Below, one piece after another: positions 4,328 to 64,000 of a DNA stretch of 64,000 nt (position 1 is the first letter of the stretch; each line of letters opens with the position of its first letter). This stretch comes from Thermodesulfobacteriota bacterium. Lineage in GTDB: Bacteria; Desulfobacterota_D; UBA1144; Nemesobacterales; JAJCZQ01. The notes beneath the pieces were generated by a model that had not been told where the DNA came from, did not search any database, and saw only the letters and a list, made by a program, of their open reading frames with translations. Where the stretch lies: NCBI GenBank assembly GCA_965215275.1, contig OZ244044.1, forward strand, positions 1,152,001 to 1,216,000, read 5' to 3'. Position numbers and translations under genes: made by a program.

Positions 4328-4471
4328 ACTTTTCCACCGTTGTAGTGCCAAGACAAGGAATCGTGGTAGTTTGATTTATGGAGATTATCTGCTTAATTAC
4401 CAAAAAACTTACATCGCTTCCCTGCACTGACTTTAAAGGTTTGAACAGATTGTTTAGCATAAAAATTATTC

Positions 4472-4501
4472 TTGACATTCATTAATAATACAAAGTAAAA
4501 T
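4472..4501 (+). promoter_or_regulatory. Sigma70-type promoter of S8-like gene 1
   Basis: TTGACA(4472)-N18-TAAAAT(4496); homologous to the promoter at 60091-60119. Confidence 0.7.
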
Positions 4502-4511
4502 AGAAAAAGTC

Positions 4512-7009
4512 ATGAACATCCTGTTTAGAGTAACACCCCCCCCCATAAGTTATTAATTCCCTTTTTCTTTCTTCTGTGCTTTGTAAACGTTGGTGCATAT
4601 GGTCAGACCAGCGTTGATAACTGCGACTCCAGTGCAACGACAGAAGCTACATTGACAGTAGCCGGAAGTACACGTAGTGGAAGTTTAGCTGCCGGTGCTG
4701 ATCCGCATTACTTTCAGATAGACGTGAATGAAAGATTGATCGTGGCTATAATAGTAACCTTCCCCTTCTCCAATGATCAGGGATACAGTTTACAGGTATG
4801 TGACAGCAATAATTATCTGATAGCAAGTGCTGCTGGAGTTCGTATTGAGGATGAGGGTATAGTGAAGGTCACTATAGAAACCCGCCTCAGACCTGGAACG
4901 TACTATATAGTAGTGGGAAGCCGTGTTGCCACGTCCTACAATGTTGCAGTTGTGGTATCTGATCTTAATACTGTATTTGATGATGACTGCCCGGAAAGTA
5001 GTACTACAAATTATCCAAACGACACCTTATACGGTTGTCAGTGGTATCTGAAACGTCAGGCGGGTGAGTTTATATTAGGTGAAAAGACAATACCCGATAC
5101 GGAATATGCAGACATAAACATAGAAGAGGTCTGGGATGATAACGTATTTGGAGCTGAGATTAACGTAGCGGTGGTAGATCATGGCATGGACACAGATCAT
5201 GAGGACCTTGCTGATAACGTGGATACTACACTTTCTCATGATTACTCAGGAAGCGGTGATCTGTACAGTCCTTTCAGTGGTCGCGGCACACGTGTGGCAG
5301 GCATTATAGCAGCAGTGGGTGATAACAGCCTTGGAGTAAGAGGTGTAGCACCTCAGGCAAGCATCTACAGTTATAATTTAGCTGATAACTTCAGTGATAC
5401 TAATGCAAAGGACGCCATGGTCCGTAATAAGGATATAACGGCTGTATCTGTCAACAACTGGGGACCGAAGGACCTGCCGGTTCTTACAGAGGCTTCATCA
5501 GAGTGGGAAGAAGGAGTGGAAACTGGTATAAGAGAAGGATTTGGTGGTAAAGGAGTATTTTACGTATGGGCGGCAGGGGACGGACATGAAGGATCAGACC
5601 AGGCTAATTTTAATGAGTATTCCAACTACTACGCTGTAACTACCGTATGTTCATCAGAGATCGATAGTCATGATAGCTTGATCACTAAGGGTTCGAGTAC
5701 TTTTTCAGAAGAAGGGTTCAATCTATGGGTATGTGCACCGGGTTCTTATATTGTAACTACGGACAATAACGACATTTATACTTTTGAGTTCCCTGGAACG
5801 TCAAATTCAGCTGCTGTTGTTTCAGGAGTAGCGGCACTGATACGGGAGGTAAACAGTGATCTTAGCTGGCGGGATCTGAAACTGATCCTGGCAGATTCAG
5901 CCAGCCAGGGAGACACCCAGTTAATTCCTGTTAGTGATAATTGGAAACCAGGAGCATTTAAATACAGTTCTGATTCAGAACGTTATCGTTACAGTCCGAA
6001 GTTCGGTTTTGGCACGGTAGACGCTGCTGCGGCAGTAGAACTTGCAGGAAGCTGGACCAACGTTCCACCGCCAATGAGACCCGTGACGGTTTCCTCGGGT
6101 AATATCAATACAGTTATCCCGGACTTCACAACGGGAAACTCAGAAGAAGATGTTTCCGTCGTTTTCACACTGACAGTACCTGATATAGATATACCAGACA
6201 CTGAGGGCTTTACGGAATTTATAGAGATCGGTATTAATTTCACTCACCCTTTCTTTCCTTTTTTAAGTATAGAAATAACTTCCCCTGACGGTAGAGTGTC
6301 AAAACTCACTGAGGCATATCCAGCAGAAGCTTTATCACTTTTATTATCTGGCAGATCTCTTACTGTAGACGACTTTGACTATACAGGCAGAGAGCATCGT
6401 TTTGGTTTAGCTAATCACTTGGGAACGGACCCTGCCGGAGAGTGGACCTTGAAGATAACCAACGCTTCAGTCGCAGGTGCGGGGACCTTACACTCATGGA
6501 ACATTAAGGTCTATGGTCATATGTCTGGTGAGACACCTACGTTCGGCGGCTGGACGATACCAGATAAGAATTACGTGCCGGGAACCGCAGTAAAGGAAAC
6601 ACTGCCTGAGGCAACAGCAGGGAATGGAGAACTGACCTACAGCCTTTCCCCTCTTTCTTTACCTGCTGGACTTACTTTCAGTGAAACTGACCGAGTGATT
6701 AGCGGAACACCAACTGCTGTATCTTCCGGCAGTTATACATATACGGTAACGGATGAAGATGGAGATAAGGATGAGCTGAGATTTACTATCAGGGTAACAA
6801 CTACGCCGCCAGAACCAACAGACCCACCAACAACAAGACCACCGACACGAAGACCGACATCATCAGGTACAGGCGGAGGTGGAGGAGGATGTGCGGTCTC
6901 CGATCAGAGCAAAACTGTTCCTGATCTGCTCGCAGCAGTAGCATCTCTGATGCTTATACCTGTATCCGTAGTTATCAGAAGGAAGATAAGGTCTCGGATA
7001 AAGACTTAG
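4512..7009 (+). CDS. Kexin/subtilase-like (S8) surface protein, probably inactive: signal peptide, PPC-like domain, S8 domain, P-domain, one Ig-like repeat, Pro/Thr linker, GGGGGC-TM-basic tail; frameshifted at a C9 tract
   Basis: VAVVD, RGTRVAG (His replaced), AAGDG, GTS, LSWRD, GFG and GEWTLKI motifs. The frame extends upstream of the track's TTG 4652 into a signal peptide (HKLLIPFFFLLCFVNVGAYG) that joins ATG 4512 only if the tract is C10 or C7. Confidence 0.85.
4536..4544 (+). repeat. C9 homopolymer, candidate contingency locus
   Basis: ACA-CCCCCCCCC-ATAAG, 24 nt after ATG 4512. Confidence 0.9.
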
Positions 7010-7192
7010 CAACACAGTCCCTTTCAAGGCATTTAACTAACTGATATCTTTACGTCAGAATATCTGCTGGCTGTTTACGGGGAGAAGAATAGTAAATAGA
7101 AAACCAAAGATAATTTTACCAATAGATTGGTGTTTTTATTATATTGATGCTTGTTTTTTAATCTTGGGTAATACAGTATATAATGCTCTTAT

Positions 7193-14272: not shown

Positions 14273-14301
14273 TTGACAAACAAAGTGTTTTACTTTACTT
14301 T
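14273..14301 (+). promoter_or_regulatory. Sigma70-type promoter of the gsp operon
   Basis: TTGACA-N17-TACTTT, 33 nt upstream of ATG 14334. Confidence 0.55.
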
Positions 14302-14333
14302 TGTATATAAAATTAAGTAAACTGCTTATTAAT

Positions 14334-15221
14334 ATGGTCTCATTAAAACACATCTGGGTTCTTAATGTTATTTTGATAATTGCCGTTGCTTACGTGTTTG
14401 CCCGTATAGTAAATGACAGATTATCTAAAGGTATCTATCACCCAACCGCGATCACGAAGGCTGATAACTTAAATAAGTTCAAAGGTTTCGTGCATGCAAA
14501 GACCAAAGAACATGACAGGACATATTATGACATTATATTAAAGAACAATATATTTGTTCCTAACAAAAACGTTTCCCGAAGCAGATTTAAAAACGTCTCT
14601 TTACCTAATGAACCTCAAGTAACTGACCTGAAGGTAGAACTGCTCGGGACGTATTTAAAGAACAACGGTGGAAGATCAATTGCAATAATCAAAAACACCA
14701 ACAGTAACAAGATAGACGGCTATACTACAGGTAACGTGATTTCGGTCATAAGGACGGAAAGGGTTAAATTACTTAAAATTGAGAACTGCAAGGTAACTAT
14801 AAACAGAGGGACCCGTGGAAATGAAGTGATCTCATGTGACAGCACGAACAGGGTAACCAAAAAGATCAGAACTGGTCATACGGCCACTAATAAAACAGGA
14901 ATTAAAAAAATAGAGAAAAACAGATGGCTGATCGAAAAGAAAATGCTTGATGAACTGCTTGAAGATCCCTCAAAACTATTTACGCAGGCCAGGGCAATTC
15001 CCAAAAAAGACGGCTTGAGGTTCGTCAGCGTGCAGCCGAGCAGCGTATTTTTCAAAATAGGTCTTAGAAATGGTGACACCCTGCATACGATCAACGAAGT
15101 TGAACTGAACGATATGAAAAACGTATGGAGCGTATTTGAGCAGTTGAAGGATGAGACGAAATTCATTATTAATTTTACAAGAAAAGGTAATAAACACTCC
15201 TACTCTTACAACGTCAATTAA
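14334..15221 (+). CDS. gspC: Type II secretion protein C (PDZ-containing)
   Basis: N-terminal TM, HR domain (LLGT..AII), PDZ motif GLRNGD; first gene of the gsp cluster. Confidence 0.8.
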   Translation: MVSLKHIWVLNVILIIAVAYVFARIVNDRLSKGIYHPTAITKADNLNKFKGFVHAKTKEHDRTYYDIILKNNIFVPNKNVSRSRFKNVSLPNEPQVTDLKVELLGTYLKNNGGRSIAIIKNTNSNKIDGYTTGNVISVIRTERVKLLKIENCKVTINRGTRGNEVISCDSTNRVTKKIRTGHTATNKTGIKKIEKNRWLIEKKMLDELLEDPSKLFTQARAIPKKDGLRFVSVQPSSVFFKIGLRNGDTLHTINEVELNDMKNVWSVFEQLKDETKFIINFTRKGNKHSYSYNVN

Positions 15222-15239
15222 CAGATCTACAAATTACAG

Positions 15240-17372
15240 ATGAAAATGGCAAAGCATATCAAGAAAATCACCCTGTTATTAGTTTTAAGCTTCGTGATCA
15301 CAACCTCCGGGTACTCACAGCAAATACCCCCTGATAACCACGTAATAAACCTGCAGTCCGAAATGACGATCAAGGACCTGATAAAGGTCATGAGCGAATT
15401 TTCAGGTGAAACTTTCATTCTGGACAAATCGGTAAAGGGGAAAAAAGTAACGATCATTTCACCTGAAGGCGGGTTCAAAAGAGAAAATGCCGAAAAGCTG
15501 TTTGAGATCATCCTGGACTTAAACGGCTTTTCTATAATCAATAAAGACGGTGTAAACAAGATCATAAAAAAGAGAAATATCAAAAGGGAAAGTATTCCAA
15601 CGGAGGTAGGACCAGCGCCTGAGGTCTCTTCCGACAGGTTCATTACAAAGATAGTCCAGCTGCAAAATATCAATGTAAATGACGTTTCAAAGGTACTGAA
15701 GCAACTCACTTCAAAAGAGGGGGATATGCTGTTCTATCCTTCTTCCAATAAGCTGATAATAATTGATAAGGTCGATAATATAAACAGGATCCTCGACATA
15801 ATCGCCAGCCTTGACATAGAAAAAAAGATAGAGTTTATAAAAATACACAACGCCGATGCAAGCGATGTTGCAGCAAAGCTGCTGCAAATATTCAGTTCTG
15901 ATTCTAAAGCTGGCTTAACCTCACAAAAAAGTTCCCGTTCATCAGGCAAGTCCAAGAGTTCAAATAAAACAAGCCAGAACGTGATCTCCGGGCGGGCGGA
16001 TATATTCGGATTTAAAGTAATTACCGAGGAGAGAACTAACTCACTTATACTGATCGCCTACCCGCATAATATGGAAAGGATCAAAGAGACCATAGCTCTT
16101 CTTGATGTTGAAACAGAGAATATAGATCAAGGCATCTACGTTATCAGGATAAAGAACGCCGACGCAGAGCAGATCGTCAGCGTTCTGCTGGGCATAATTA
16201 ACCCAGGCAGGAGCGGTAACACCTCCTACCGCACACAGACTGACCGATCAGGAACGAACAGAATAAATACAGGTTCCACGCTTTCAACCTCTGGAGGAAC
16301 CAGCAGATCAGGCATAAGACAAAGTTCAAGAGAAAATCCAAGACAGACCGGACCCAGCGGCCTGGCTGCAATTTCAGCTGAAGCGGAAGGTCTCAGGATC
16401 ACTGCTGACCCGGCTACAAATTCCGTTATTGTCGTAGGTTCAAGGGATGACTATAAAGCAATTAAAAAAGTCATAGAACAGCTTGATATAAGAAGAAGGC
16501 AGGTATTCGTGGAAGCCGCTATACTGGAAGTCGGTTTAAATGATCTGACCGCATTTGGTCTTAATTTTAATCTTGGTGCATCGGTAAACAACAATAACCT
16601 TATATTTGGAGGACAACAACTTCCAGGTGTATCCAGTTTGCTGGGTGCTGCGATAAGCAGTGAACAGGCCATCAGCACTCTTGGAACCCTTTCCGGTCTG
16701 TTCTTAGGGGTTCTTGGAAAAGAGGTGGATATTGACGGGTCGGGACCCATACCACCAATACCTTCGTTCTCAGCCTTATTTCAGGCACTGTCATCCGTAA
16801 CTGACGTGAACGTGCTCTCAACTCCAAGCATTCTCACTACTGACAACGAACAGGCTGAAATAACGGTGGCCGACGTCATACCATTTCCCACGGGAAGTAC
16901 AGTGGGAACATCAGGAGTTACGGTCAGTACGATCGATCGTCTCCCCGTCGGCATAAGGCTCGCCATTACTCCTCAGATAAGTGAGGGCAATTTTATGAGC
17001 CTTAATATTATAACTGAGGTCTCCAATATCACCGAAGCCCCACAGGGACTGAACACGCAGGTTTTTGGTATTGCCACACAAACCAGAACCGCCGACTCTT
17101 CCATCATAGTAAAGGACGGTCAGACCATTGTGATCGGTGGACTTGTGTCAGACAGGGAACGCACTGCCGAGAACAAAACACCCTTACTCGGAGATATTCC
17201 CATACTCGGCAATCTGTTTAAACAGAAACAAAAGCTGAACCAGAAACTGAACCTGATCATCCTTCTCACGCCTCGCATAGTTGAAACGGACGAAGACGTA
17301 CAAGATATTTTAGAAGAAGAGCAAAGAAGAAGGATGCTGCTTCAGGAAAGAGGGCTCGACATCCTAAAATAA
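15240..17372 (+). CDS. gspD: Type II secretion secretin D
   Basis: N domains, RRQVFVEA, LSTPSILT.DN, PLLGDIPILG.LF. Confidence 0.95.
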   Translation: MKMAKHIKKITLLLVLSFVITTSGYSQQIPPDNHVINLQSEMTIKDLIKVMSEFSGETFILDKSVKGKKVTIISPEGGFKRENAEKLFEIILDLNGFSIINKDGVNKIIKKRNIKRESIPTEVGPAPEVSSDRFITKIVQLQNINVNDVSKVLKQLTSKEGDMLFYPSSNKLIIIDKVDNINRILDIIASLDIEKKIEFIKIHNADASDVAAKLLQIFSSDSKAGLTSQKSSRSSGKSKSSNKTSQNVISGRADIFGFKVITEERTNSLILIAYPHNMERIKETIALLDVETENIDQGIYVIRIKNADAEQIVSVLLGIINPGRSGNTSYRTQTDRSGTNRINTGSTLSTSGGTSRSGIRQSSRENPRQTGPSGLAAISAEAEGLRITADPATNSVIVVGSRDDYKAIKKVIEQLDIRRRQVFVEAAILEVGLNDLTAFGLNFNLGASVNNNNLIFGGQQLPGVSSLLGAAISSEQAISTLGTLSGLFLGVLGKEVDIDGSGPIPPIPSFSALFQALSSVTDVNVLSTPSILTTDNEQAEITVADVIPFPTGSTVGTSGVTVSTIDRLPVGIRLAITPQISEGNFMSLNIITEVSNITEAPQGLNTQVFGIATQTRTADSSIIVKDGQTIVIGGLVSDRERTAENKTPLLGDIPILGNLFKQKQKLNQKLNLIILLTPRIVETDEDVQDILEEEQRRRMLLQERGLDILK

Positions 17373-17390
17373 GAATGACGATCATCCAAG

Positions 17391-19073
17391 ATGAAAGACA
17401 TTAATCATATACTGCAAGAAAAAAATCCTGAGATAGTTGAAAGCTTTCTGCAGATAAAATCTAAAAGCTCAGAGAGTGCCGAAGAGGTACTTATAAAGTC
17501 CAACCTGCTGGACGATGAAAAATTACTGAGCGTCTTATCAGAATACTATGGCGTTCCAGTGCTGCGCGAGATCAGGAACGAAGATATAGATTTTGAACTG
17601 GTCAGAAAACTTCCTATAAAGTTTAGCCGAAAGCACAGACTAATACCTATTTCACAAACCAACGGAACAATGAAGGTGGCACTGGCACCACCGGTCGACC
17701 TGTATGCACTTGATGAGGTCAGATCCCTTTTCAACTGCCCTGTTGAAACTCTCTTGACCTTCAAACACACGCTGTATGAAAATATAAACCGTGCTTATGA
17801 ACAGAATCAGGAAATATCCAGTGATATAGAGCAGGAACAGACAGAGAACGTAGAACTGGACATACATGAGCCAAAGGACCTGCTGGAAGCATACGATGAA
17901 GCTCCGATAATAAAGTTCGTTAACTCGCTTTTGTTCCGGTCAGTTAAAGAAAAAGCAAGCGATATACACATAGAATGCTTTGAAAAGAACATGACGGTGC
18001 GGTTCAGAAAAGACGGAATGCTTCAGAACATAACCTCCGTGGGTAAAAAAGTACAGTCCGCCATAATCTCTCGTGTAAAGATCATGGCAGAACTTGATAT
18101 AGCGGAAAAAAGAAAACCACAGGATGGCAGGATAAGGGTAAAGGTCGCAGGTCGGGACGTTGATATAAGGATCTCCACCGTGCCAACGACATGGGGTGAG
18201 AGCGTTGTTATGAGGCTTCTTGACAGGTCTTCGGTTCTTCTCAGCCTTGAAGATCTGGGACTTGAAGGTGAAAAACTTGCAAAATTCGACTTTCTGATAA
18301 GAAAACCTCATGGAATCATCTTGGTAACAGGACCCACGGGAAGTGGTAAGACCACAAGTCTGTACGCCGCACTGGAAAGAATAAATTCCCCCGATAAAAA
18401 AATTATTACAATCGAAGACCCGGTAGAGTATCAGATAAAAGGGATAAATCAGATCCAGGTCAATAACAAGGTCGATCTGACGTTTGCCAATGGACTCAGG
18501 TCCGTGCTCAGGCAAGACCCTGACGTGATACTCGTAGGTGAAATAAGGGACAGAGAGACGGCAGATATATCTATACACGCATCTTTAACCGGACACCTGG
18601 TGTTCTCCACTCTTCATACCAACGACTCCGCCAGTGCGATCACAAGGATGATCGATATGAACATTGAACCCTTTCTTGTTTCTTCATCGCTGCTCGCTGT
18701 GGTTGCACAGAGACTCGTAAGGGTGCTTTGTTATCACTGCAAGCAAAAGTATATTCCCACCGATGAGGACCTGAGCAGGATCGGTATCAACCGCAACGAC
18801 ATAAAAGATGGAACGGTTTTTAAGAGCAAAGGATGCAAAAAATGTACGGATTCCGGATTTAATGGCCGCGTGGCAATTTTTGAAATTCTGATAATGGACG
18901 ATGATATAAGAAACCTGACCTTGGGTATAACCGACTCCTCAACGATAAAACGTAAAGCCATGGAAAAAGGTCTCACCACTCTCAAGATGGATGGAGCAAA
19001 CAAAGTAATAAGCGGCGTTACCTCGATCGACGAAGTGCTGCGGGTTACCGAGGAAGAGCACAGCAGTTTCTAA
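17391..19073 (+). CDS. gspE: Type II secretion ATPase E
   Basis: ASDIHIE, GPTGSGKT, LRQDPD, tetracysteine motif. Confidence 0.95.
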   Translation: MKDINHILQEKNPEIVESFLQIKSKSSESAEEVLIKSNLLDDEKLLSVLSEYYGVPVLREIRNEDIDFELVRKLPIKFSRKHRLIPISQTNGTMKVALAPPVDLYALDEVRSLFNCPVETLLTFKHTLYENINRAYEQNQEISSDIEQEQTENVELDIHEPKDLLEAYDEAPIIKFVNSLLFRSVKEKASDIHIECFEKNMTVRFRKDGMLQNITSVGKKVQSAIISRVKIMAELDIAEKRKPQDGRIRVKVAGRDVDIRISTVPTTWGESVVMRLLDRSSVLLSLEDLGLEGEKLAKFDFLIRKPHGIILVTGPTGSGKTTSLYAALERINSPDKKIITIEDPVEYQIKGINQIQVNNKVDLTFANGLRSVLRQDPDVILVGEIRDRETADISIHASLTGHLVFSTLHTNDSASAITRMIDMNIEPFLVSSSLLAVVAQRLVRVLCYHCKQKYIPTDEDLSRIGINRNDIKDGTVFKSKGCKKCTDSGFNGRVAIFEILIMDDDIRNLTLGITDSSTIKRKAMEKGLTTLKMDGANKVISGVTSIDEVLRVTEEEHSSF

Positions 19074-19099
19074 ATCCAAGCATTGATACTTATCAGCTA

Positions 19100-20302
19100 A
19101 TGCCAGTTTATAAATATAAAGCGATCAACTCAGATGGTTCCAATAAGGAAGGAATAGTAGACGCAGAATCGGTCAAGGCGGCCTCAGAGAAATTAAAGCA
19201 GCAAGGTCTGTATCTCTCCTCGATTTCCGAAGCTTCAAAAAGCGGAAAAAGAAGTTATATTCCCTTCAGAAGGGTCAGCAGTTCAGAACTGGCCGTTACG
19301 ACAAGGCAGTTTGCATCCCTTATATCCGCGGGGCTTCCACTGGAAGCATCTCTTGTTGCACTTTCTGAGCAGACCGAGGATCAGAAGATAAAAGAGACCT
19401 TCACACAAGTGAGAAACAGGGTAAACGAGGGAAGCTCCCTTGCAAACGCGCTTTCTGAACATAGTGACGTATTTTCCAAAATCTATATCAATATTATCAA
19501 TGCCGGTGAGGTCAGTGGGAATCTGGACATCGTGCTTAACAGACTGGCGGATTTTATGGAAAAATCCACCGCTTTGAGATCAAAGATAAAAAGCGCTTTC
19601 GTTTATCCCGCATTTATGTTCATAGTCGGATCGGGCATCATGTTCTTTATGATGGTATATGTAATACCGAAGATCAGCAAGATATTCGAAGCGAGTGAAA
19701 AGGCACTTCCCTTATCAACGCTCATCCTGATGAACATCAGCAGTTTTCTTATAAATAATTTAATTGTCATTCTCTTGCTCACTTTCGTAACAGGGTTTAT
19801 TTTGATAAAGTTCATAAGGTCCGAAAAGGGAAAAAGATTTACTGATATCCTTGTCTTAAAACTTCCCATATTTGGCAAGCTGATCTCCAAAATCGCAATA
19901 TCAAGGTTCGCAAGGACGACCGGAACGCTCGTGGGGAGCGGTATTCCTCTCCTTAACGCACTGGAGATCGGTGAAGCGGTAATGGGGAACTCCGTGTTCA
20001 CGGACTCGCTGCAAGAGGTGAGGGTCAGTGTCAGAGAAGGTTCCGACCTTGCCTCTCCTCTCCAGGACAGCAAAGTGTTCCCTCCACTTGTCACAAGGAT
20101 GATCAGCGTGGGTGAACAGACAGGTGAAATAGAGGATATGTTCAACAAAATAGCAGACATTTACGACCTGCAGGTCGAGAATACCCTTTCGGCTTTAACT
20201 TCCCTGCTGGAACCCGTAATGATATTGGCAATAGGAGCAGTAATGGCATTTATAGTTTTTGCCATACTGCTTCCCATTTTTGATCTAACTTCAGTAATAT
20301 AA
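19100..20302 (+). CDS. gspF: Type II secretion inner-membrane platform F
   Basis: TRQFASLISAGLPL, GE.SGNL, LLEP motifs. Confidence 0.95.
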   Translation: MPVYKYKAINSDGSNKEGIVDAESVKAASEKLKQQGLYLSSISEASKSGKRSYIPFRRVSSSELAVTTRQFASLISAGLPLEASLVALSEQTEDQKIKETFTQVRNRVNEGSSLANALSEHSDVFSKIYINIINAGEVSGNLDIVLNRLADFMEKSTALRSKIKSAFVYPAFMFIVGSGIMFFMMVYVIPKISKIFEASEKALPLSTLILMNISSFLINNLIVILLLTFVTGFILIKFIRSEKGKRFTDILVLKLPIFGKLISKIAISRFARTTGTLVGSGIPLLNALEIGEAVMGNSVFTDSLQEVRVSVREGSDLASPLQDSKVFPPLVTRMISVGEQTGEIEDMFNKIADIYDLQVENTLSALTSLLEPVMILAIGAVMAFIVFAILLPIFDLTSVI

Positions 20303-20318
20303 AAACAGGAGGTTTATT

Positions 20319-20747
20319 ATGATTAAATCACAGAAAGGTTTCACCTTCATTGAGATCATGGTGGTGGTGATAATCATAGCCAGTCTCGCGGCGATCATCA
20401 CACCAAATATAATGAAACGGCTGGACGAGGCAAACGTCAAAATAACAAAAACAAATATGGCAAATTTAGAAAGTGCCATTAAGCTTTTTAAGTTAGACAA
20501 TGGCTTTTATCCCGATAGTCAGCAGGGACTTTCCGCACTGGTCTCACCTCCCACTATCGGCAGAGAGGCAAGGAGCTGGAATGGACCTTATCTGGGAAAA
20601 AGTCAAGTCCCGCTCGATGCCTGGTCAAATGATTTTGTTTACCTTGGTCCCGAGCATTCCAATAATGGAACATATACACTCAGGTCACTGGGTGAGGATG
20701 GGGTGCCAAATACAGGGGACGATATCTTAAGCACCAGTATTGAATGA
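20319..20747 (+). CDS. gspG: Major pseudopilin G
   Basis: G|FTFIE prepilin motif, LDNG.YP...QGL, DAW, SLGEDG. Confidence 0.92.
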   Translation: MIKSQKGFTFIEIMVVVIIIASLAAIITPNIMKRLDEANVKITKTNMANLESAIKLFKLDNGFYPDSQQGLSALVSPPTIGREARSWNGPYLGKSQVPLDAWSNDFVYLGPEHSNNGTYTLRSLGEDGVPNTGDDILSTSIE

Positions 20748-21295
20748 CCAAAAATGCAGGCTTTACATTAATTGAACTTCTCCTGGTGATGTTCATTCTG
20801 GGAAGTTTATTGCTTATAGCCTTACCGAGGTTTAACAGCGTCACTGATACAAGTATAAAAAGCGCATCAAGAAACCTGAGCGGCATAATAAAGTATCTTT
20901 ACAACGATTCCATATTTAAAAAAAACATATACAGGTTGAGACTTGACATAGACAATGATCAATACTGGGTCGAACATATCGAAGGTAAGGAATTTACCGT
21001 TTCCACCGATCCGAATTTAAAAAAAAGGAAACTTCCCGATGGCATTTTCTTTGAGGACGTGTTCACGCAAAGGTCACAGAAAAAAATTAAAAAAGGGGAT
21101 GAAGTCTTTATTCTCTTCTTACCCAGCGGTTTTGTTGATTATGCCGTCATACACCTTGGCAGCGTTGATAATAAAAGTTATACGATAGAAACCAAACCCT
21201 ACACTGGTGGGACAAAAATATATGATCAGTATTACGATCTCAGAGAAAAAAGTGACCTGCAACGAATTAACAAGTTACGGAAGGTCAGAGAATAA
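20744..21295 (+). CDS. gspH: Minor pseudopilin H
   Basis: G|FTLIE motif; position after gspG. Confidence 0.75.
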   Translation: MTKNAGFTLIELLLVMFILGSLLLIALPRFNSVTDTSIKSASRNLSGIIKYLYNDSIFKKNIYRLRLDIDNDQYWVEHIEGKEFTVSTDPNLKKRKLPDGIFFEDVFTQRSQKKIKKGDEVFILFLPSGFVDYAVIHLGSVDNKSYTIETKPYTGGTKIYDQYYDLREKSDLQRINKLRKVRE

Positions 21296-21644
21296 GGGAT
21301 TTACACTTCTTGAAGTCGTTATAGCCATCACGCTGATCGGAACAGCAATGGTCATATTGCTCGGGTCCGTCAGTAATAACATAAATTTTGCTTCCAAATC
21401 CAAAAATAATCAGACCGCAACTCTCCTGGCAGAGCAGATGATGGCTGAGATCGAACTTGAGGAAATACTTTATGAAAGGGAAGAAAGTGGTACTTTTCCA
21501 AATCACGGAGAATTTAAATGGTTCGTATCCGTATATCCCTACGAGCTACCTTTTTTAAATATCAAGATCATGATGGTAAGACTTTTAATAACATGGGACA
21601 ATGACAATTCATCATTTGAAATATTCACGGCAATGCCGAACTGA
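21252..21644 (+). CDS. gspI: Minor pseudopilin I (start uncertain: 21207, 21222 or 21252)
   Basis: G|FTLLEV motif; synteny. Confidence 0.75.
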   Translation: MTCNELTSYGRSENKGFTLLEVVIAITLIGTAMVILLGSVSNNINFASKSKNNQTATLLAEQMMAEIELEEILYEREESGTFPNHGEFKWFVSVYPYELPFLNIKIMMVRLLITWDNDNSSFEIFTAMPN

Positions 21645-22356
21645 AAAAGGGTTTACCCTGATCGAGATACTGGTGGTGATGTTCATTACGGCCATTATAG
21701 CGACAATGCTGTACGGTTCACTTTTTCAGATCATAGACACAAAGGAAAAGATCGAGAACGAGCTGGAGGTCCTTCATGAAGCCAGAATGGTCTTTTCAAA
21801 AATAAGCAAGGACCTGAGGAACGCATACCCAAGGGGCAGGGTTTCAAGTATAAAATCCAGCAGCTATCCTTATTTTTACTTCAAAGGTGAAAAAGACCCT
21901 GTAAACGAAAAAAACAGCAGACTGCATCTGTCATCATATGCGTCAAGCACGGCTTATTTCAGCCAAAACCCTGATCTGACCCTGAACCGCCAATCAGACC
22001 AGTCGGAAGTCACATACTTTTTAGAGGAACTGGACGAGCAGGACCAACCACACACGGATCAAAGCCAGCTGTACGCACTGGTACGACGTGAAAACCCATG
22101 GTTTGGTAATGAACAGGGCGGTATTCAATATGCCTTATCTGAAAGGGTTTCAAGTTTCAGGATCACTTATCTTAACGACAAGAAAATAAAAAATCCAGAC
22201 CTGACACTTAATACGGAAGGTATTACAAAATGGAACGCAGGCAATCCTGCAGACACAGGCTACCCAAAAGCCGTTGAAGTAAAGCTCGTACTAATAGATA
22301 ACCTCGGAAAAGACCAGTCGTTCAGTACAACTATCTTTTTACCCATTACAAAATAG
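21601..22356 (+). CDS. gspJ: Minor pseudopilin J
   Basis: G|FTLIE, SKDLRNA, C-terminal PKAVEV. Confidence 0.8.
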   Translation: MTIHHLKYSRQCRTEKGFTLIEILVVMFITAIIATMLYGSLFQIIDTKEKIENELEVLHEARMVFSKISKDLRNAYPRGRVSSIKSSSYPYFYFKGEKDPVNEKNSRLHLSSYASSTAYFSQNPDLTLNRQSDQSEVTYFLEELDEQDQPHTDQSQLYALVRRENPWFGNEQGGIQYALSERVSSFRITYLNDKKIKNPDLTLNTEGITKWNAGNPADTGYPKAVEVKLVLIDNLGKDQSFSTTIFLPITK

Positions 22357-22361
22357 AAACG

Positions 22362-23444
22362 GTGAACATGCTTATCAAAAGAAAGAAAGAAAAAGGAACA
22401 GTGCTTGTAATGGTGCTGATCGTCATTGCAATACTGACCATTATAGTCGCCGAGTTCACTTTCAGCACATATATTGACCTCGCAATTTCCAAAAACACCC
22501 AGAACGATATAAAAGCACGATACATAGCCAAATCCGGAATAAGTCTGGTCTCAAGCATAATGAAGACCAAGAACCCCGAAACGATGGATAGAGTGGCAAA
22601 GTTCATACCATCGATGTACTTAGGGAACAACGAAAAAGGGATGTGGACACTGACAGTGTCATCTTTTCCTTTGGGCGACGGTGCAGTCTCTTTAACGATG
22701 GAAGACGAAAGAGCAAAAATAAATTTAAATTCTCTGGTTAATCCAAAAAGCAATAAAGTTGACTTTCAGGTACTGACGGCACTTACACAACTCTTCAAGT
22801 TTTTAAAAGTTGACCAGGAAAAATCCAACCTGTTCATATCCAGCCTGGTCAACTGGTTAGATAGAGAACTGAAAGGGTCACCGAACGATCAGGAATCTTA
22901 TGGAGTTAATGAAAAATTTTATGAACAACTTGATACTCCATATCAAATTAAAGACGGACAGATAGACAGCATAGAGGAAATCCGAATGATCGAGGGAATG
23001 GATACAGAATTCTATAATAAGATAAAAAATTATATAACGGTTTATCCTTCGAATAAATTAGTTAATTTCAGCACCGCCCCCAGACCGGTCATGATGGCGG
23101 TAATAGCAGCTTCTCATGTATCTTCAATTAAGAAAAAAGACCCCGCTGAGATAAACCATTCCACAGTTGAATCCATTGTCAGCGAGATATTGGAAAAAAG
23201 AGAAGACGATAACGTGATTTCAAGAAAGGAAGTCAAAAATATTGTAAATAAAATAGGTACAGAACATAACATCTCCGCTGGTCTGAGCGGGCTTGTTTTG
23301 AAGTACGGAAAAAGCGATATATTTTCAGTCAGATCAACAGGCGTTGCCGGAAGCGGAGATATTACAATAAAAAATATTGAGGCAGTTGTTAAAAAACCAA
23401 GCCGTAGCAACGCCCAGCAAATTGTTTCATGGAAAGAGGAATAG
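22362..23444 (+). CDS. gspK: Minor pseudopilin K
   Basis: G|TVLVMVL without Glu5, DERAKINLN, VNFSTAP. Confidence 0.85.
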   Translation: MNMLIKRKKEKGTVLVMVLIVIAILTIIVAEFTFSTYIDLAISKNTQNDIKARYIAKSGISLVSSIMKTKNPETMDRVAKFIPSMYLGNNEKGMWTLTVSSFPLGDGAVSLTMEDERAKINLNSLVNPKSNKVDFQVLTALTQLFKFLKVDQEKSNLFISSLVNWLDRELKGSPNDQESYGVNEKFYEQLDTPYQIKDGQIDSIEEIRMIEGMDTEFYNKIKNYITVYPSNKLVNFSTAPRPVMMAVIAASHVSSIKKKDPAEINHSTVESIVSEILEKREDDNVISRKEVKNIVNKIGTEHNISAGLSGLVLKYGKSDIFSVRSTGVAGSGDITIKNIEAVVKKPSRSNAQQIVSWKEE

Positions 23445-33421: not shown

Positions 33422-34249
33422 ATGACATCTGTTCGGTGGAAAATATTTTTAATAATCGCCTTTATAACCTCAGGTATACTTGGACAACACAAGGAAGCAA
33501 TTGCAGACTTTGACAAAGCAATAGAGATTGCAATAGCTTACTACAACAGAGGACTTACCAAATGCGAACTTGGTCAATACAAGGAAGCAATTGCAGACTT
33601 TGACAAAGCAATAGAAATTACAATAGTTTACTACAACAGAGGACTTGCCAAATACGAACTTGGTCAATACAGGGAAGCAACCGCAGACTTTGACAAAGCA
33701 ATAAAGATTGCAAGAGTTTTCAATAACAGAGGACTTGCCAAACATGACCTTGGTCAATACAAAGAAGCGATCAATGACTATGACAAAGCAATAGAGATAG
33801 ACCCACAATTAGCAAGAGCTTTTTTCAATAACAGAGGACTTGCCAAACATGAACTTGGTCAATACAAGGAAGCAACCGCAGACTTTGACAAAACAATAAG
33901 GATAGATCCACAATCAGCAATAGCTTACAATAACAGAGGACTTGCCAAACATGAACTTGGTCAATACAAGGAAGCGATCAAGGACTATAACAAAGCAATA
34001 GAGATAGACCCACAATTAGCAATAGCTTACTACAACAGAGGACTTGTCAAACATGAACTTGGTCAATACAAGGAAGCGATCAAGGACTATGACAAAGCAA
34101 TAGAGATAGACCCACAATTAGCAAGAGCTTTCAATAACAGAGGACTTGCCAAATACGAACTTGGTCAATACAAAGAAGCGATCAAGGACTATGACAAAGC
34201 AACCAAAACAGACAATAAGACATTGCTGATTTATAAGAGTAAAGATTGA
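33422..34249 (+). CDS. Tetratricopeptide-repeat protein with hydrophobic N-terminus
   Basis: Seven and a half A.AY.NRGLAK.ELGQYKEAI.D.DKAIEI(DPQL) units. Confidence 0.85.
   Translation: MTSVRWKIFLIIAFITSGILGQHKEAIADFDKAIEIAIAYYNRGLTKCELGQYKEAIADFDKAIEITIVYYNRGLAKYELGQYREATADFDKAIKIARVFNNRGLAKHDLGQYKEAINDYDKAIEIDPQLARAFFNNRGLAKHELGQYKEATADFDKTIRIDPQSAIAYNNRGLAKHELGQYKEAIKDYNKAIEIDPQLAIAYYNRGLVKHELGQYKEAIKDYDKAIEIDPQLARAFNNRGLAKYELGQYKEAIKDYDKATKTDNKTLLIYKSKD
33479..34201 (+). repeat. Near-identical DNA tandem repeats underlying the TPR units
   Basis: ACAGAGGACTT recurs at 33546, 33636, 33726, 33831, 33933, 34035 and 34137 (periods 90, 90, 105, 102, 102, 102). Confidence 0.9.
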
Positions 34250-60090: not shown

Positions 60091-60119
60091 TTGACATCCG
60101 TTCATAATACGAGTAAAAT
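60091..60119 (+). promoter_or_regulatory. Sigma70-type promoter of S8-like gene 2
   Basis: TTGACA-N17-TAAAAT, homologous to 4472-4501. Confidence 0.7.
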
Positions 60120-60128
60120 ATCAATGTT

Positions 60129-63100
60129 ATGAAAATACCAAACATAAAAACATGTAGTTCCATTACCCCCCCCCGTGTATACCTGAACTTTCAACCTGGT
60201 ATAAGTATTTTGTAAGAACAATGTTTAAGATAATACCCCCCCCCATCTAAGTCATTACTAACGTTAGTCTTATTTCTTCTGATTATTATGGTCATAGCTG
60301 CAAAAGGGCAGAGCAGCCTGGAAGAAACATTATCTGAATGCAGAGGAATCAGTGCAGACACGGAAGATCCGTTATACGGATGTCAGTGGCATCTGAAAAA
60401 TACAGGACAGCTTGGTTTTTCCGGAAAGGAAATAACTGCAGGAGAAGATATAAACATAGAGGGAGTGTGGAACGAAGAGGTATATGGTACAGGAATTAAC
60501 GTAGCAGTAGTAAGCGACGGCATTGACCTTTCACATGAGGACCTTTCTGCAAACGTTCGTTCCGGACCGAACTATGATCATTCAGACAGTTCATCTTTTA
60601 GTGGAACACGAGCGGCAGGAGTTATAGCAGCAACTGGATATAACGGACTGGGAGTAAGAGGAACTGCACCTGGTGCGAGTATATACAGTTACAGGTTATC
60701 CGGTGATCTCAGTGAAGCGGACGCGGTGGTCCGTAATAAGGAAATAACAGCAGTATCGGTTAACGGCCGGGGATCTGAGGACGGAGCTTTTTTTCAGGAG
60801 GCTTCATCTTCCTGGGAAGAAGGAGTGGAACTTGGTATAAAGAAAGGGTTTTATGGTAAAGGAGTGTTTTACGTCCGGGGAGCAGGGGACGGGCATGAAA
60901 GAGGAGATCAGGCTAATTTTAATGAATATTCCAGCTATTACGGAGTAACAGCCGTTTGTTCAACTGACGGTTTTGGAAAAAAGAGTATTTTTTCAGAAGA
61001 GGGAGTAACTCTATGGGTATGTGCACCTGGTTCTGATATTGTAACCACTGATAACAACAACGATTACGTTGTAACTTCCGGAACATTTCTATCAGCTTCA
61101 CAGGTTGGAGGAGTGGCAGCACTGCTGAGAGAGATAAACGACCAGCTGAGCTGGAGGGATATAAAGCTTATACTTGCGGGTTCAGCACGGCAGAACGACG
61201 TTTCTGACCTTAGCTGGGAGACTGGAGCGGTTAAATACGGCTCTGACACGGAAAGATATAAATATAATCCTAAGTATGGTTTTGGTGTGGTTGACGCAGA
61301 AGCAGCCGCAGAACTTGCCAGAAGCTGGAAAGGCGTTGGAGAAATGAGGACCGTTACCGCCTTTTCAGATAAAGAAATAACAATTCCTGATGGAGAAGGA
61401 AATGGAGAAGGAGAGGCAGACGGGGTCCTTGTCTCAAGACTTATTATCCCTGACCTGGAAGAAACAACGTTTACGGAGTTCACAGAAGTTGAACTTGTTC
61501 TCTCGTGTGACTGCTTACAGGACCTTAATATACAGATAACCTCTCCTTCCGGAACAGTATCTGAACTTGTGCGGGAGTTTGTAAGTGGACCTTCGGATGA
61601 AGAAAAAAACTGCGTCAGTTACCTGAGAAGAACACATCGTTTCGGGTCGGCTAAACACCTCGGAGAAGACCCTTCCGGAGAATGGGTCCTTAAAATATCC
61701 GATACTGCTTCCGGAGATACAGAAAATGAAAAAAACACTGTTACCTTACACTCATGGAGCATTAAGGTATACGGGAATTTTTATCAGGAACATGGCAGTG
61801 AGATAAGTGCTAAACATCATGATCTTAGTTTTGGTGGTGCGACAGTTCCGGATCAAATCTACAGAGTAGGAACACAAGTAAACTACAGGTTGCCTAGTGC
61901 AAGTGGAGGGGGTGGTGGACGTACATATAGTTTATCTCCTCGTTTACCTGCTGGATTGGACCGTCAAAACATATTAGTAATAAGAGGAACACCAACTACT
62001 GTAACACCTAATACACTTTATACATTAACTGCTACAGGTTTCAACGGAGATAAGGATAGTCTAACGTTCAATATCACAGTAAAAGAACCTGACACATCAC
62101 CAACCTTTTCAGGAGCAACGGTCCCTGAACAGATATGGACGGAAGGGGTAAGGATACCAACGTTACGTTTTCCTAATGCAACGGGAGGTAACGGAACTTT
62201 AACATACTTTTTAAGTCCTGCGCAGCCAGTTGGTATCAGCAGACAGGACAACAGGTTATTCGGAACACCTACGGAAACTCAAAGAAGATCTCGTTATACA
62301 TGGACAGTCAGAGACAAAGATGATGATGAAGATTCTATTCAGTTCTATATTACTGTAAGAGAGAACGTCCCTACCTTCGGAGGTCAGACAATACCTCAGC
62401 AGAATTATATAGTAGGCAGAACAATACAAAGATTAGTATTTCCTCGTGCAACGGGAGAGGAGCCGTTAACTTACAATTTAGAAGGAGGTCCGACTAATTT
62501 ACCAGGTGGATTGAACTTAGTAAGTAATCCAACAAGTATAATCGGAACACCAACTACAACGGCGGACATTAATTACAGATGGACAGTTACGGACAAAGAT
62601 GGAGATAAGACAGAACTTCCGTTCAGGATGAAGATAAGAACTGCATCTGAAGTACCGGACTTCGGCAGTGAGACGGTAGAAGATCAGGTGTGGGGTAACG
62701 GCAGAGCAGTAACGTTAACTCTGCCTCAGGCAACGGGAGGGGATGGAACTTTAAATTACAGTTTAAGCGGTGTAATACCAAATGGACTTATTTTTAACAG
62801 TAACACCAGAACGTTAAGTGGAACGCTCGACGTTGCTGCTCCAAGTGTATTACCCATAACTCTTTCATATACTTACAAGGTAACTGACTCTGACTCAGAT
62901 GATGACGGGGATTCTGACAGTATTACTTTCTCTATTACTATAGAAACTAACCAAGAACCGAGCTTTGGAGGTCAGTCAATTCCTGATCAGATATATATTC
63001 AAGGGACAACGGTAGGTCTTCCGGTAACGCTTCCTGCTGCCACTGGTGGTAATTCTCCACTTGTTTATAGTATCTCTCCTGCTTTACCTTCTGGATTGAG

Positions 63101-64000
63101 CTTTGAGCCTGCTACCAGAGAGATAAGCGGAGCACCAACTAATATTTCGGGTTTGATAACAAATTATACATATAAGGTAACGGACAGTGATGGAGATACG
63201 GCTAATCTGAGTTTCCGCCTGCAAATAATCGGTAACACCCAGCCAGTCTTTAATAATACGATAACAGATAAGGTGTATTATACGTTTACAGGAGTAACGG
63301 AAACGTTACCTGAGGCAGCACAAAATAATAATCCACCTTCAACTTACAGTTTAACTCCTGCATTACCTGATGGACTGAGATTTACCCCTGCTACCAGAGA
63401 GATAACAGGAACACCGACCACTGCAATGTCTGAGACTGATTATACGTATACGGTTGCTGATCTAAATGGAGATACGGATGATCTGACGTTCAGCATAACT
63501 GTATTAGCAGGAACTGACACGGAACCAACCTTTGGCAGTGAGAGTATAGATAATAAGGTGTACATTAACGGCATTACAGCAGTAACGTTAACTCTGCCTG
63601 CTGCTACTGGAGGGGATGGGACTTTAACTTACAGTTTAGAGAGGGACCCTGGAGATGGTATTTTCACTACTGCTTTATTTAAGGGATTGACATTTACTGC
63701 AAACACCAGAGAGTTAAGCGGAACACCCAATCTTGATATTCATCCAAGTCTATTTCCTGCAACTCAGGATCATAAATATGAAGTAACAGACAATGATGGA
63801 GATACAGCAGAGATAACGTTCAGTATAACAATAGAAGAAGACAGCGAACCGGACTTCAGCGGTGTGACAATACCAGATCGTGTGTACACGGGGAGAACAA
63901 TAGAGCTGCCAGAGGCAGCGGGAGGGAATTTACCGGTTACATACAGTATAACACCTGATCTGCCAGCTGGATTGAGATTTAACGAAGTAACGCGGGAAAT
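60129..64000 (+). CDS. Large kexin/subtilase-like pseudo-protease with P-domain and at least 8 Ig-like (He_PIG-like) repeats; runs off the window; 5' end interrupted by two C9 tracts
   Basis: Absent from the ORF track. By hand translation the frame is open from 60234 to the window end (>1240 codons): signal peptide SKSLLTLVLFLLIIMVIAAKG, DPLYGCQWHLKN, LSWRDIK, GFGVVDA, GEWVLKI, then PxFG..IPD...D.DGD repeats. True start 60129 or 60221; first in-frame ATG is 60288. Confidence 0.88.
60166..60174 (+). repeat. C9 homopolymer (tract 1 of gene 2)
   Basis: ATTA-CCCCCCCCC-GTG. Confidence 0.9.
60236..60244 (+). repeat. C9 homopolymer (tract 2 of gene 2)
   Basis: ATAATA-CCCCCCCCC-ATCTAAG. Confidence 0.9.
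61824..64000 (+). repeat. Tandem 90-108 aa Ig-like repeats
   Basis: Units start near 61824, 62100, 62370, 62655, 62958, 63243, 63525 and 63849 with LSFG/PTFS/PTFG/PDFG/PSFG/PVFN/PTFG/PDFS. Confidence 0.85.

Follow-up and report, generated by a model that had tools for sequence, protein, structure and literature searches.

The window (the whole stretch of 64,000 nucleotides analysed here) belongs to a genome assembled as one contig of 1,990,023 bases (1.99 Mb), whose RuvB has its nearest named matches in Thermodesulfobacteriota (83%) and Ca. Dadabacteria (78%). In the gene at 4512..7009, a promoter, an ATG, a homopolymeric C tract and a signal-peptide region follow one another, and the protein-coding part continues through the following features.

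4472..4501, plus strand: sigma70-type promoter, TTGACA-18-TAAAAT, with an 11/12 consensus match, ending 10 nt before the ATG
4512..4556, plus strand: start codon and 14-aa OFF product MNILFRVTPPPISY, then stop, by translation from ATG 4512
4526..4528, plus strand: TAG closing the main frame 5' of the tract, from frame reading
4536..4544, plus strand: C9 tract, which puts the gene in the OFF phase; C10 or C13 would restore the frame; C7 fits too, but a run of 7 is absent genome-wide
4547..4603, plus strand: hydrophobic and cleavage part of the predicted signal peptide (..AYG, then Q), holding the most hydrophobic 11-mer of the protein
4613..4963, plus strand: predicted N-terminal all-beta domain, pLDDT about 60-80
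5153..5917, plus strand: S8 kexin-like domain, from Pfam, a PDB sequence search and a structure model
5177, 5282, 5579 and 5801, plus strand: catalytic positions of a predicted pseudoprotease, with Asp 5177 kept, His replaced by Arg at 5282, the oxyanion Asn replaced by Asp at 5579 and Ser 5801 kept
6221..6508, plus strand: proprotein convertase P domain, from Pfam
6557..6799, plus strand: He_PIG (putative Ig) repeat, from Pfam, then a Pro/Thr linker, from sequence
6872..7009, plus strand: Gly run, Cys, hydrophobic helix and basic tail, a predicted Cys-type C-terminal sorting signal; stop at 7007-7009

Relative to ATG 4512, the main frame is shifted by 2 (mod 3), and so a tract of C10 (or C7 or C13) joins this start codon to the main frame. 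The tract length sets the reading frame of the window gene, and the ORF is otherwise intact. A preliminary description of the locus had placed a C9 tract at 4536-4544, had read ATG 4512 into a short peptide followed by a stop and had found the main frame shut by TAG 4526, and the sequence agrees with it in all three respects. Its proposal that one extra C (C10, or C7) fuses the two frames holds for both lengths, but C7 gives one Pro fewer than was written there. The description also held that the main frame has no ATG, GTG or TTG before the hydrophobic segment, so that a start at 4652 loses the signal peptide. In agreement with this, no common start codon occurs in the main frame until TTG 4652, which lies 3' of the hydrophobic segment, and only the rare starts ATT 4556 and CTG 4574 precede it. 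Translation from TTG 4652 was considered and rejected, because it would give no signal peptide and the paralogs start at the upstream ATG. The C/G runs longer than 6 elsewhere in the window are just those at 60166 and 60236, the two at 60.2 kb that had already been named as the only comparable ones.

The closest paralog of the window gene, with 88% identity, has a C8 tract and is in frame, and the in-frame paralog at genome position 1336561 begins with MNIFFKIIPPP. The promoter module scores 10-11 of 12 across 47 paralog leaders, none of which (0/47) has a Shine-Dalgarno core between the -10 box and the ATG. These paralog leaders, together with the promoter lying 10 nt before the ATG, suggest near-leaderless initiation at 4512 on an mRNA predicted to have no Shine-Dalgarno core. 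We infer that the signal peptide is cleaved after AYG, and G-Q at this predicted site is invariant in 9/9 aligned paralogs. The gene follows prfB-nadK (window 4328-7192; L155 and L156), and the genomes G002 and G003 carry different genes after nadK, so that the window gene looks like a lineage-specific insertion.

Catalytic residues and C-terminal tail of the window protein

A first fold prediction for the N-terminal 300 aa, made with nine sequences, was poor (pLDDT 45). The structure model has a pTM of 0.86 and a TM-score of about 0.77 to Kex2 and furin, and the window gene has the S8 plus P-domain fold seen in kexin/furin (S8B) and Aeromonas ASP. Unlike those proteases, the window copy has Arg in place of His, which breaks the Asp-His-Ser triad, and Asp in place of the oxyanion Asn. 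The label 'S8-like' given previously therefore suits the fold, but not the catalytic His and the oxyanion Asn. An Asn-to-Asp change at the oxyanion position alone need not abolish activity, as in PC2. By the triad test, the window protein is not an active S8 protease, and its sequence predicts a pseudoprotease. No Pfam beta-barrel translocator domain is found at its C-terminus, which has a helix and a basic tail, and so it is not an autotransporter of the NalP type.

Cys-containing C-terminal sorting signals have an invariant Cys, a hydrophobic helix and a basic cluster and are handled by CPBP sortases (bioRxiv 2023.06.07.544157). A tripartite tail with an invariant Cys and a CPBP protease are both present in this genome. 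The Gly-Gly-Gly-Cys/helix/basic pattern occurs on 58 ORFs, and the only CPBP/Rce1-like protease (L133:1477-2121, minus strand; genome 680806-681450) is encoded directly upstream of an S8 paralog closely related to the window gene. In having a Cys, a helix and a basic tail, one CPBP protease and no rhomboid found, the genome resembles the MYXO-, JDVT-, Synerg- and CGP-CTERM systems. It differs from them in that about 10 polar residues lie between Cys and helix, that the window tail falls below every curated CTERM cut-off (9.6 bits against the JDVT-CTERM model, whose cut-off is 27) and that the protease scores below all Mrt cut-offs. No tail model other than JDVT-CTERM is among the matches for the window tail. 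The CPBP protease is a candidate sortase for the Cys tail, and the family is predicted to be anchored at the surface. GlyGly-CTERM with rhombosortase was rejected, since the genome has no rhomboid protease (0 matches to PF01694). A type II secretion-like cluster with secretin, ATPase, inner-membrane platform and pseudopilins, named by eye from the ORFs, lies at window 14301-23444.

The S8 paralog family and its leaders

The genome contains 57 kexin-like S8 paralogs (found by tblastn as 56 clusters, one with two genes). A 5' poly-C tract is present in 50/57, as a single tract in 22 and as a double tract in 28, and 6/57 have no 5' tract. The remaining paralog, at genome 518332 and 518941, carries a 5' G11 and a frameshift at an internal G13 that splits it, both runs having G on the coding strand, and was left unscored. 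Two extra family members without an S8 domain have 5' tracts and the same C-terminal tail, and two of the tract-free copies have an in-frame poly-C deeper inside the gene. The family tracts are 8 to 13 long and cover all three frames. From the promoter-proximal start, 5/50 copies are in frame (4/22 singles and 1/28 doubles). Among the singles, however, two come into frame if translation begins at another ATG 3-4 nt further upstream and one has an in-frame Met after the tract; four doubles are in frame only when read from their second ATG. Because of these uncertain start assignments, the true ON count is 5 to 12 of 50. Counted by tract, 17/78 are in frame, which is below one third (p=0.03, with tracts that are not independent).

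The five ON tips are scattered over the family tree beside OFF sisters. Three copies with identical S8 cores have C13/C10 (OFF), C10/C9 (ON) and C9/C10 (OFF), and such identical cores indicate that gene conversion or recent duplication occurs. Where the 60-nt inter-tract segments of two copies are identical, tract length differs in 3/3 pairs; where they have at most 2 mismatches, it differs in 16/20. Orthologs in other assemblies (93-100% identity, compared as gene calls, not DNA) are apparently in the same state in 4/5 cases. In the fifth case, the copy in this genome is ON, and the gene calls elsewhere begin at an internal Met (P0153/P0233), as would fit an OFF state there; this points only indirectly to length variation across strains. 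One methyltransferase site has C9 in G001 and C13 in this genome.

The full set of catalytic residues (D/H/N/S) is kept in 6/6 tract-free copies and in 26/27 aligned distant homologs, and in 0/50 poly-C copies. A triad residue is missing in 49/50 of the latter, in one by deletion, and the exception keeps D/H/S. A tree of 54 family rows and four Dehalococcoidia outgroup rows (copies 518958, 797023 and 1505453 omitted) places the tract-free copies at the base. A single clade (95/99) unites the 49 tract copies, and within it 48 copies, all lacking the full triad, group together (97/100). Acquisition of the tracts and loss of catalytic residues would thus be about one event each, followed by expansion, and so the match between tracts and dead copies is not statistically independent and does not amount to 50 cases.

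Apart from the frame at the tract, 41/45 OFF copies are open to the tail. A second lesion is present in 4/45, and a lesion is also present in 1/6 tract-free copies. The dN/dS ratio, computed by NG86 on nearest pairs with two mixed pairs left unsummarised, has a median of 0.40 for OFF-OFF pairs (n=29, range 0.17-0.74, the unscored G11 copy included) and is 0.32 for OFF-ON pairs (n=5) and 0.40 for tract-free pairs (n=4). Between the window gene and its nine clade mates, it is 0.33-0.52. These ratios indicate that the OFF copies are under purifying selection and are not decaying, although gene conversion could mask decay.

The second paralog in the window begins at one of the 28 double leaders.

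60091..60244, plus strand: double leader, with promoter at 60091-60119, ATG1 at 60129, C9 at 60166-60174, a degenerate promoter-like segment, ATG2 at 60221 and C9 at 60236-60244; both tracts out of frame
60246..64000, plus strand: ORF of 1354 codons stop to stop, extending past the window end; catalytic positions S/S/D/F

The segment between the two tracts resembles a second promoter-ATG module and has the same register in 25/25 distinct segments, with a 17-nt spacing and mostly 9 nt to ATG2; its score is strong in 2/25 and weak in the others. A working second promoter in most double leaders was therefore rejected. In 28/28 leaders, the ATG2 frame stays open through the inter-tract segment, compared with 0 and 3 for the other frames; these counts are not independent, because the double leaders share ancestry. 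The openness of the ATG2 frame implies that read-through from ATG1 is preserved and that both tracts must be in frame, and the two-tract leaders are predicted to act as AND gates. When the first tract is out of frame, a stop lies within -8 to +5 nt of ATG2 in 16/20 leaders, so that re-initiation could give a middle expression level. In three singles, the upstream flank of tract 1 is fused to the downstream flank of tract 2, and from this arrangement they are read as collapses between the tracts.

When the last tract of the S8 leaders (also window 60236-60255) is read on the opposite strand, an nTGACn hexamer precedes it in 28/50, a TATAAT-like hexamer follows it in 16/50 and both are present in 12; at first tracts, the arrangement is found in 0/28. 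These hexamers look like an inverted copy of the promoter-spacer cassette of the relatives, or an antisense promoter.

Long G/C runs in the genome and its relatives

The length distribution of G/C runs in the genome is bimodal: there are 787 runs of 5, 78 of 6, none of 7, 6 of 8, 68 of 9, 32 of 10, 18 of 11, 6 of 12, 5 of 13, 2 of 14, 1 of 17 and 1 of 26, giving 139 runs of at least 8. Geometric extrapolation from the runs of 5 and 6 predicts 7.7 runs of 7, of which none was seen, and 0.08 runs of 9, of which 68 were seen. The longest A/T run is 9. The absence of G or C runs of exactly 7 extends over all 1.99 Mb, whereas 30/30 relatives have some. The leaders of the S8 family hold 79/139 long G/C runs. 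MutL scores above its family cut-off and is intact, and a full-length MutS-like ORF, named by eye, is present.

Around 20 other tract regions, 26 ORF pieces were scanned, and 22 had a Pfam match. The classes include DNA methyltransferases, restriction-modification enzymes, SAM methyltransferase, glycosyltransferases, sulfotransferases and TPR proteins, and a phase-variable methylome and glycan are possible on this basis. Long G/C tracts lie in or beside TPR, type ISP/IIG/III and N6/N4 methyltransferase genes (L134, L137-L139, L141-L146, L148, L151 and L153), and the same set of loci includes SAM methyltransferase, sulfotransferase and glycosyltransferase genes with tracts. A TPR-repeat ORF lies at window 33422-34249, and several related TPR genes elsewhere in the genome have an internal poly-C.

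Among 30 related genomes, there is no full-length match to the S8 family. Scans of genome and metagenome contigs gave relatives of only 35-43% identity (5 and 12 loci) and no same-species DNA for tract comparison. Of these 17 loci, 12 were inspected: their S8 domains, where complete, retain the catalytic motifs, and a tract at the start of the gene is absent from all 12. An excess of runs of at least 9 over runs of 7 is found in G001 (21 vs 6), G011 (130 vs 15) and G025 (113 vs 16) and is absent in the other 27/30. Poly-G lies between the TTGAC -35 box and the -10 box in 20/30 of the first 30 tracts of G025, in 14/30 of the first 30 of G011 and in 6/20 examined in G001, suggesting that these sister lineages have a promoter-level switch system. 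Their spacers (G025 L053-L082, G011 L083-L112 and G001 L113-L132) follow the pattern TTGAC..Gn..TA(G/A)AAT or TAAACT and are mostly 15 (G011) or 19-20 (G025) long, not 17. The long-tract tool is common to the order, and its use on the S8 family was found only in this genome.

Probable switching at the C9 tract

The preliminary description had named a homopolymer consensus error as the main alternative to switching, that is, a true sequence of C10 and an intact gene. Four public runs (X1, X2, X4 and X5) were compared at the locus as assembled contigs, which drop rare variants. ACA directly before a C run occurs once in the genome, at the tract 4536-4544. A 92-nt contig that spans 4485-4564, contains ACA-C9 and has neither differences nor gaps occurs in X1, X4 and X5, which come from two studies (X5 from the second), at depths of 134, 17 and 4.6, respectively. 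In X1, which is possibly the source sample, the flanking unique contig has a depth of 117. At window 4493-4545, X2 has identical flanks at a depth of about 470, yet no record bearing the allele of the window locus itself. Five paralog tracts matched by eye in the run contigs have the same lengths as in the assembly. By a crude classifier applied across the genome, 12/21 G/C runs of at least 8 look broken, compared with 9/133 internal A/T runs of 8-9, 12/544 G/C runs of 5-6 and 36/1173 random sites. An error in a single-contig assembly is made easier to conceive by run platforms that are not on record, by the possible origin of the assembly in X1, by the low depth in X5 and the missing allele in X2, and by a C9 record that has only 20 letters to the right of the tract, under the 31-letter bridging rule. 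However, the gapless record recurs in two studies, breakage concentrates at long G/C runs, and a consensus error cannot account for the tract placement or the missing runs of 7. C9 is unlikely to be an assembly error and probably is the real state, and a consensus error as the explanation of the locus is extremely improbable.

The C9 tract probably works as an ON/OFF switch by slipped-strand mispairing. It would be one of 50 such switches in a predicted surface-anchored, mostly dead kexin-like family of which each cell would display a small, changing subset. The window locus has the sequence features of an SSR phase-variable contingency locus, namely an over-represented homopolymer, frame control and length variation among paralogs. 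The slipped-strand reading, already put forward in the preliminary description, is indirectly supported by the family-wide tract placement, the in-frame paralogs of other lengths, the length differences between identical leaders and the purifying selection on OFF copies. The run contigs with the locus allele have C9 only, and switching at C9 would follow from this indirect support. Against switching stand the contigs of the four runs, in which no tract-length variant or indel row appears at C9 (rare variants would be dropped, but in X1 the C9 record is about as deep as the flanking contig), the five paralog tracts that agree with the assembly, the apparently unchanged state of four of the five orthologs, the intact MutL with a MutS-like ORF beside it in the gene set, and the low share of tracts in frame. 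The run contigs, the orthologs and MutL would also suit a slow or frozen switch, whose tracts change only over evolutionary time, with C9 fixed now and the gene a silent copy or gene-conversion donor heading for decay; so would C9 in 3/3 runs holding the allele, the second lesions in OFF copies and the recent conversion or duplication indicated by the identical S8 cores. Such freezing is unlikely, however: OFF pairs and tract-free pairs have equal dN/dS, a tract-free copy has a lesion as well, lengths differ between identical leaders, a common sample or campaign may lie behind the runs, and their contigs hide minorities. Leaky recoding, in which RNA-polymerase slippage or ribosomal frameshifting at the C run yields a little full-length protein from every copy whatever the DNA length, is very unlikely. 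It would explain why most copies are out of frame yet conserved, and the stops near ATG2 in doubles would permit re-initiation, but the DNA tract lengths span 8 to 13 in all three frames and the similar tracts of the relatives sit in promoter spacers, where DNA length alone matters.

If C9 is a slipped-strand switch, transcription would start a few bases before ATG 4512, and the ribosome would make the 14-aa peptide from C9 and an 832-aa precursor after the addition of one C. The precursor would be exported by Sec, cut at its Cys-containing tail by the CPBP protease and then passed to the surface through type II secretion. In the 28 paralogs with two serial tracts, both of which would need to be in frame from the first ATG, the AND gate would lower the ON share. 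The dead S8/P/Ig scaffold may form a variable coat that serves in binding or as a decoy, with phage, grazers or a host as the opponent, and the six tract-free active proteases would stay on.

The Neisseria opa/pilC genes and Chlamydia pneumoniae ppp (Cpn1054) are dispersed paralogs whose 5' repeat lies in the signal-peptide region or ahead of it; these families have about a dozen copies or fewer and are not known to have a pseudo-enzyme scaffold. To our knowledge, they contain no tandem promoter-ATG-tract cassette. The paralogs described here are likewise dispersed, each with a 5' repeat near the signal peptide, but they differ in their 50 tract copies, their pseudo-enzyme scaffold and their tandem promoter-ATG-tract cassettes. 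NalP is a subtilisin-type protease. In Neisseria meningitidis, NalP and MspA have a coding poly-C of 6-15, with expression only at 7, 10 or 13 (PMC3723659). The window gene resembles them as a predicted surface protein gated by a coding poly-C tract. Unlike NalP, a single active autotransporter, the family here has 50 paralogs, of which 49 lack a triad residue and 28 have two serial tracts, and it combines a kexin-type P domain with Ig repeats and a C-terminal tail of the Cys type. In Campylobacter, G/C tracts peak at 9 and 10 (53% and 26%), coding-strand C accounts for 5% of cases and a C. jejuni isolate singled out as high has 81 tracts (PMC6321876). As in the Campylobacter phasome, tract lengths peak at 9 and 10 here (68 and 32 of 139) and methyltransferase and glycan-modification genes are included. 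Unlike in Campylobacter, there are 139 tracts, the main family has its C runs on the coding strand, one paralog family is gated by more than half of all tracts, and MutL is intact. A literature search, which left most subscription journals uncovered, gave nothing on Dadabacteria phase variation or sponge-symbiont homopolymeric phase variation, and nothing relevant on MAG phasomes, phase-variable pseudoprotease families or double-tract gates.

The mechanism itself is already known, and what is new is the scale, the division into dead and active copies and the serial switches. A broader reading, which we put forward tentatively and hold to be about as open to doubt as to belief, is that an uncultured member of the Dadabacteria turned one protease gene into a 50-member dead-enzyme coat, each member switched by poly-C, with AND gates made from stacked promoter-ATG-poly-C cassettes. 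Each cell would then show a random handful of decoys or adhesins with six active proteases on, which would be antigenic variation on a pathogen scale outside the known pathogens, and the sister lineages would have reached the same end by promoter-spacer poly-G. Repeat-driven phase variation has mostly been studied gene by gene in human and animal pathogens; here, 139 tracts in 2 Mb, 79 of them on one family, would make up phase variation on a larger scale. The lineage is uncultured and its mutL is intact, and the phase variation would go together with a wholesale loss of catalytic residues. Serial double switches would set the number of coat variants shown per cell, and about 50 matched loci in one genome could give switching rates as a function of tract length and context. 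In such families, automatic gene calling cuts off the signal peptide, of which the 785-aa record P0100 is an example.
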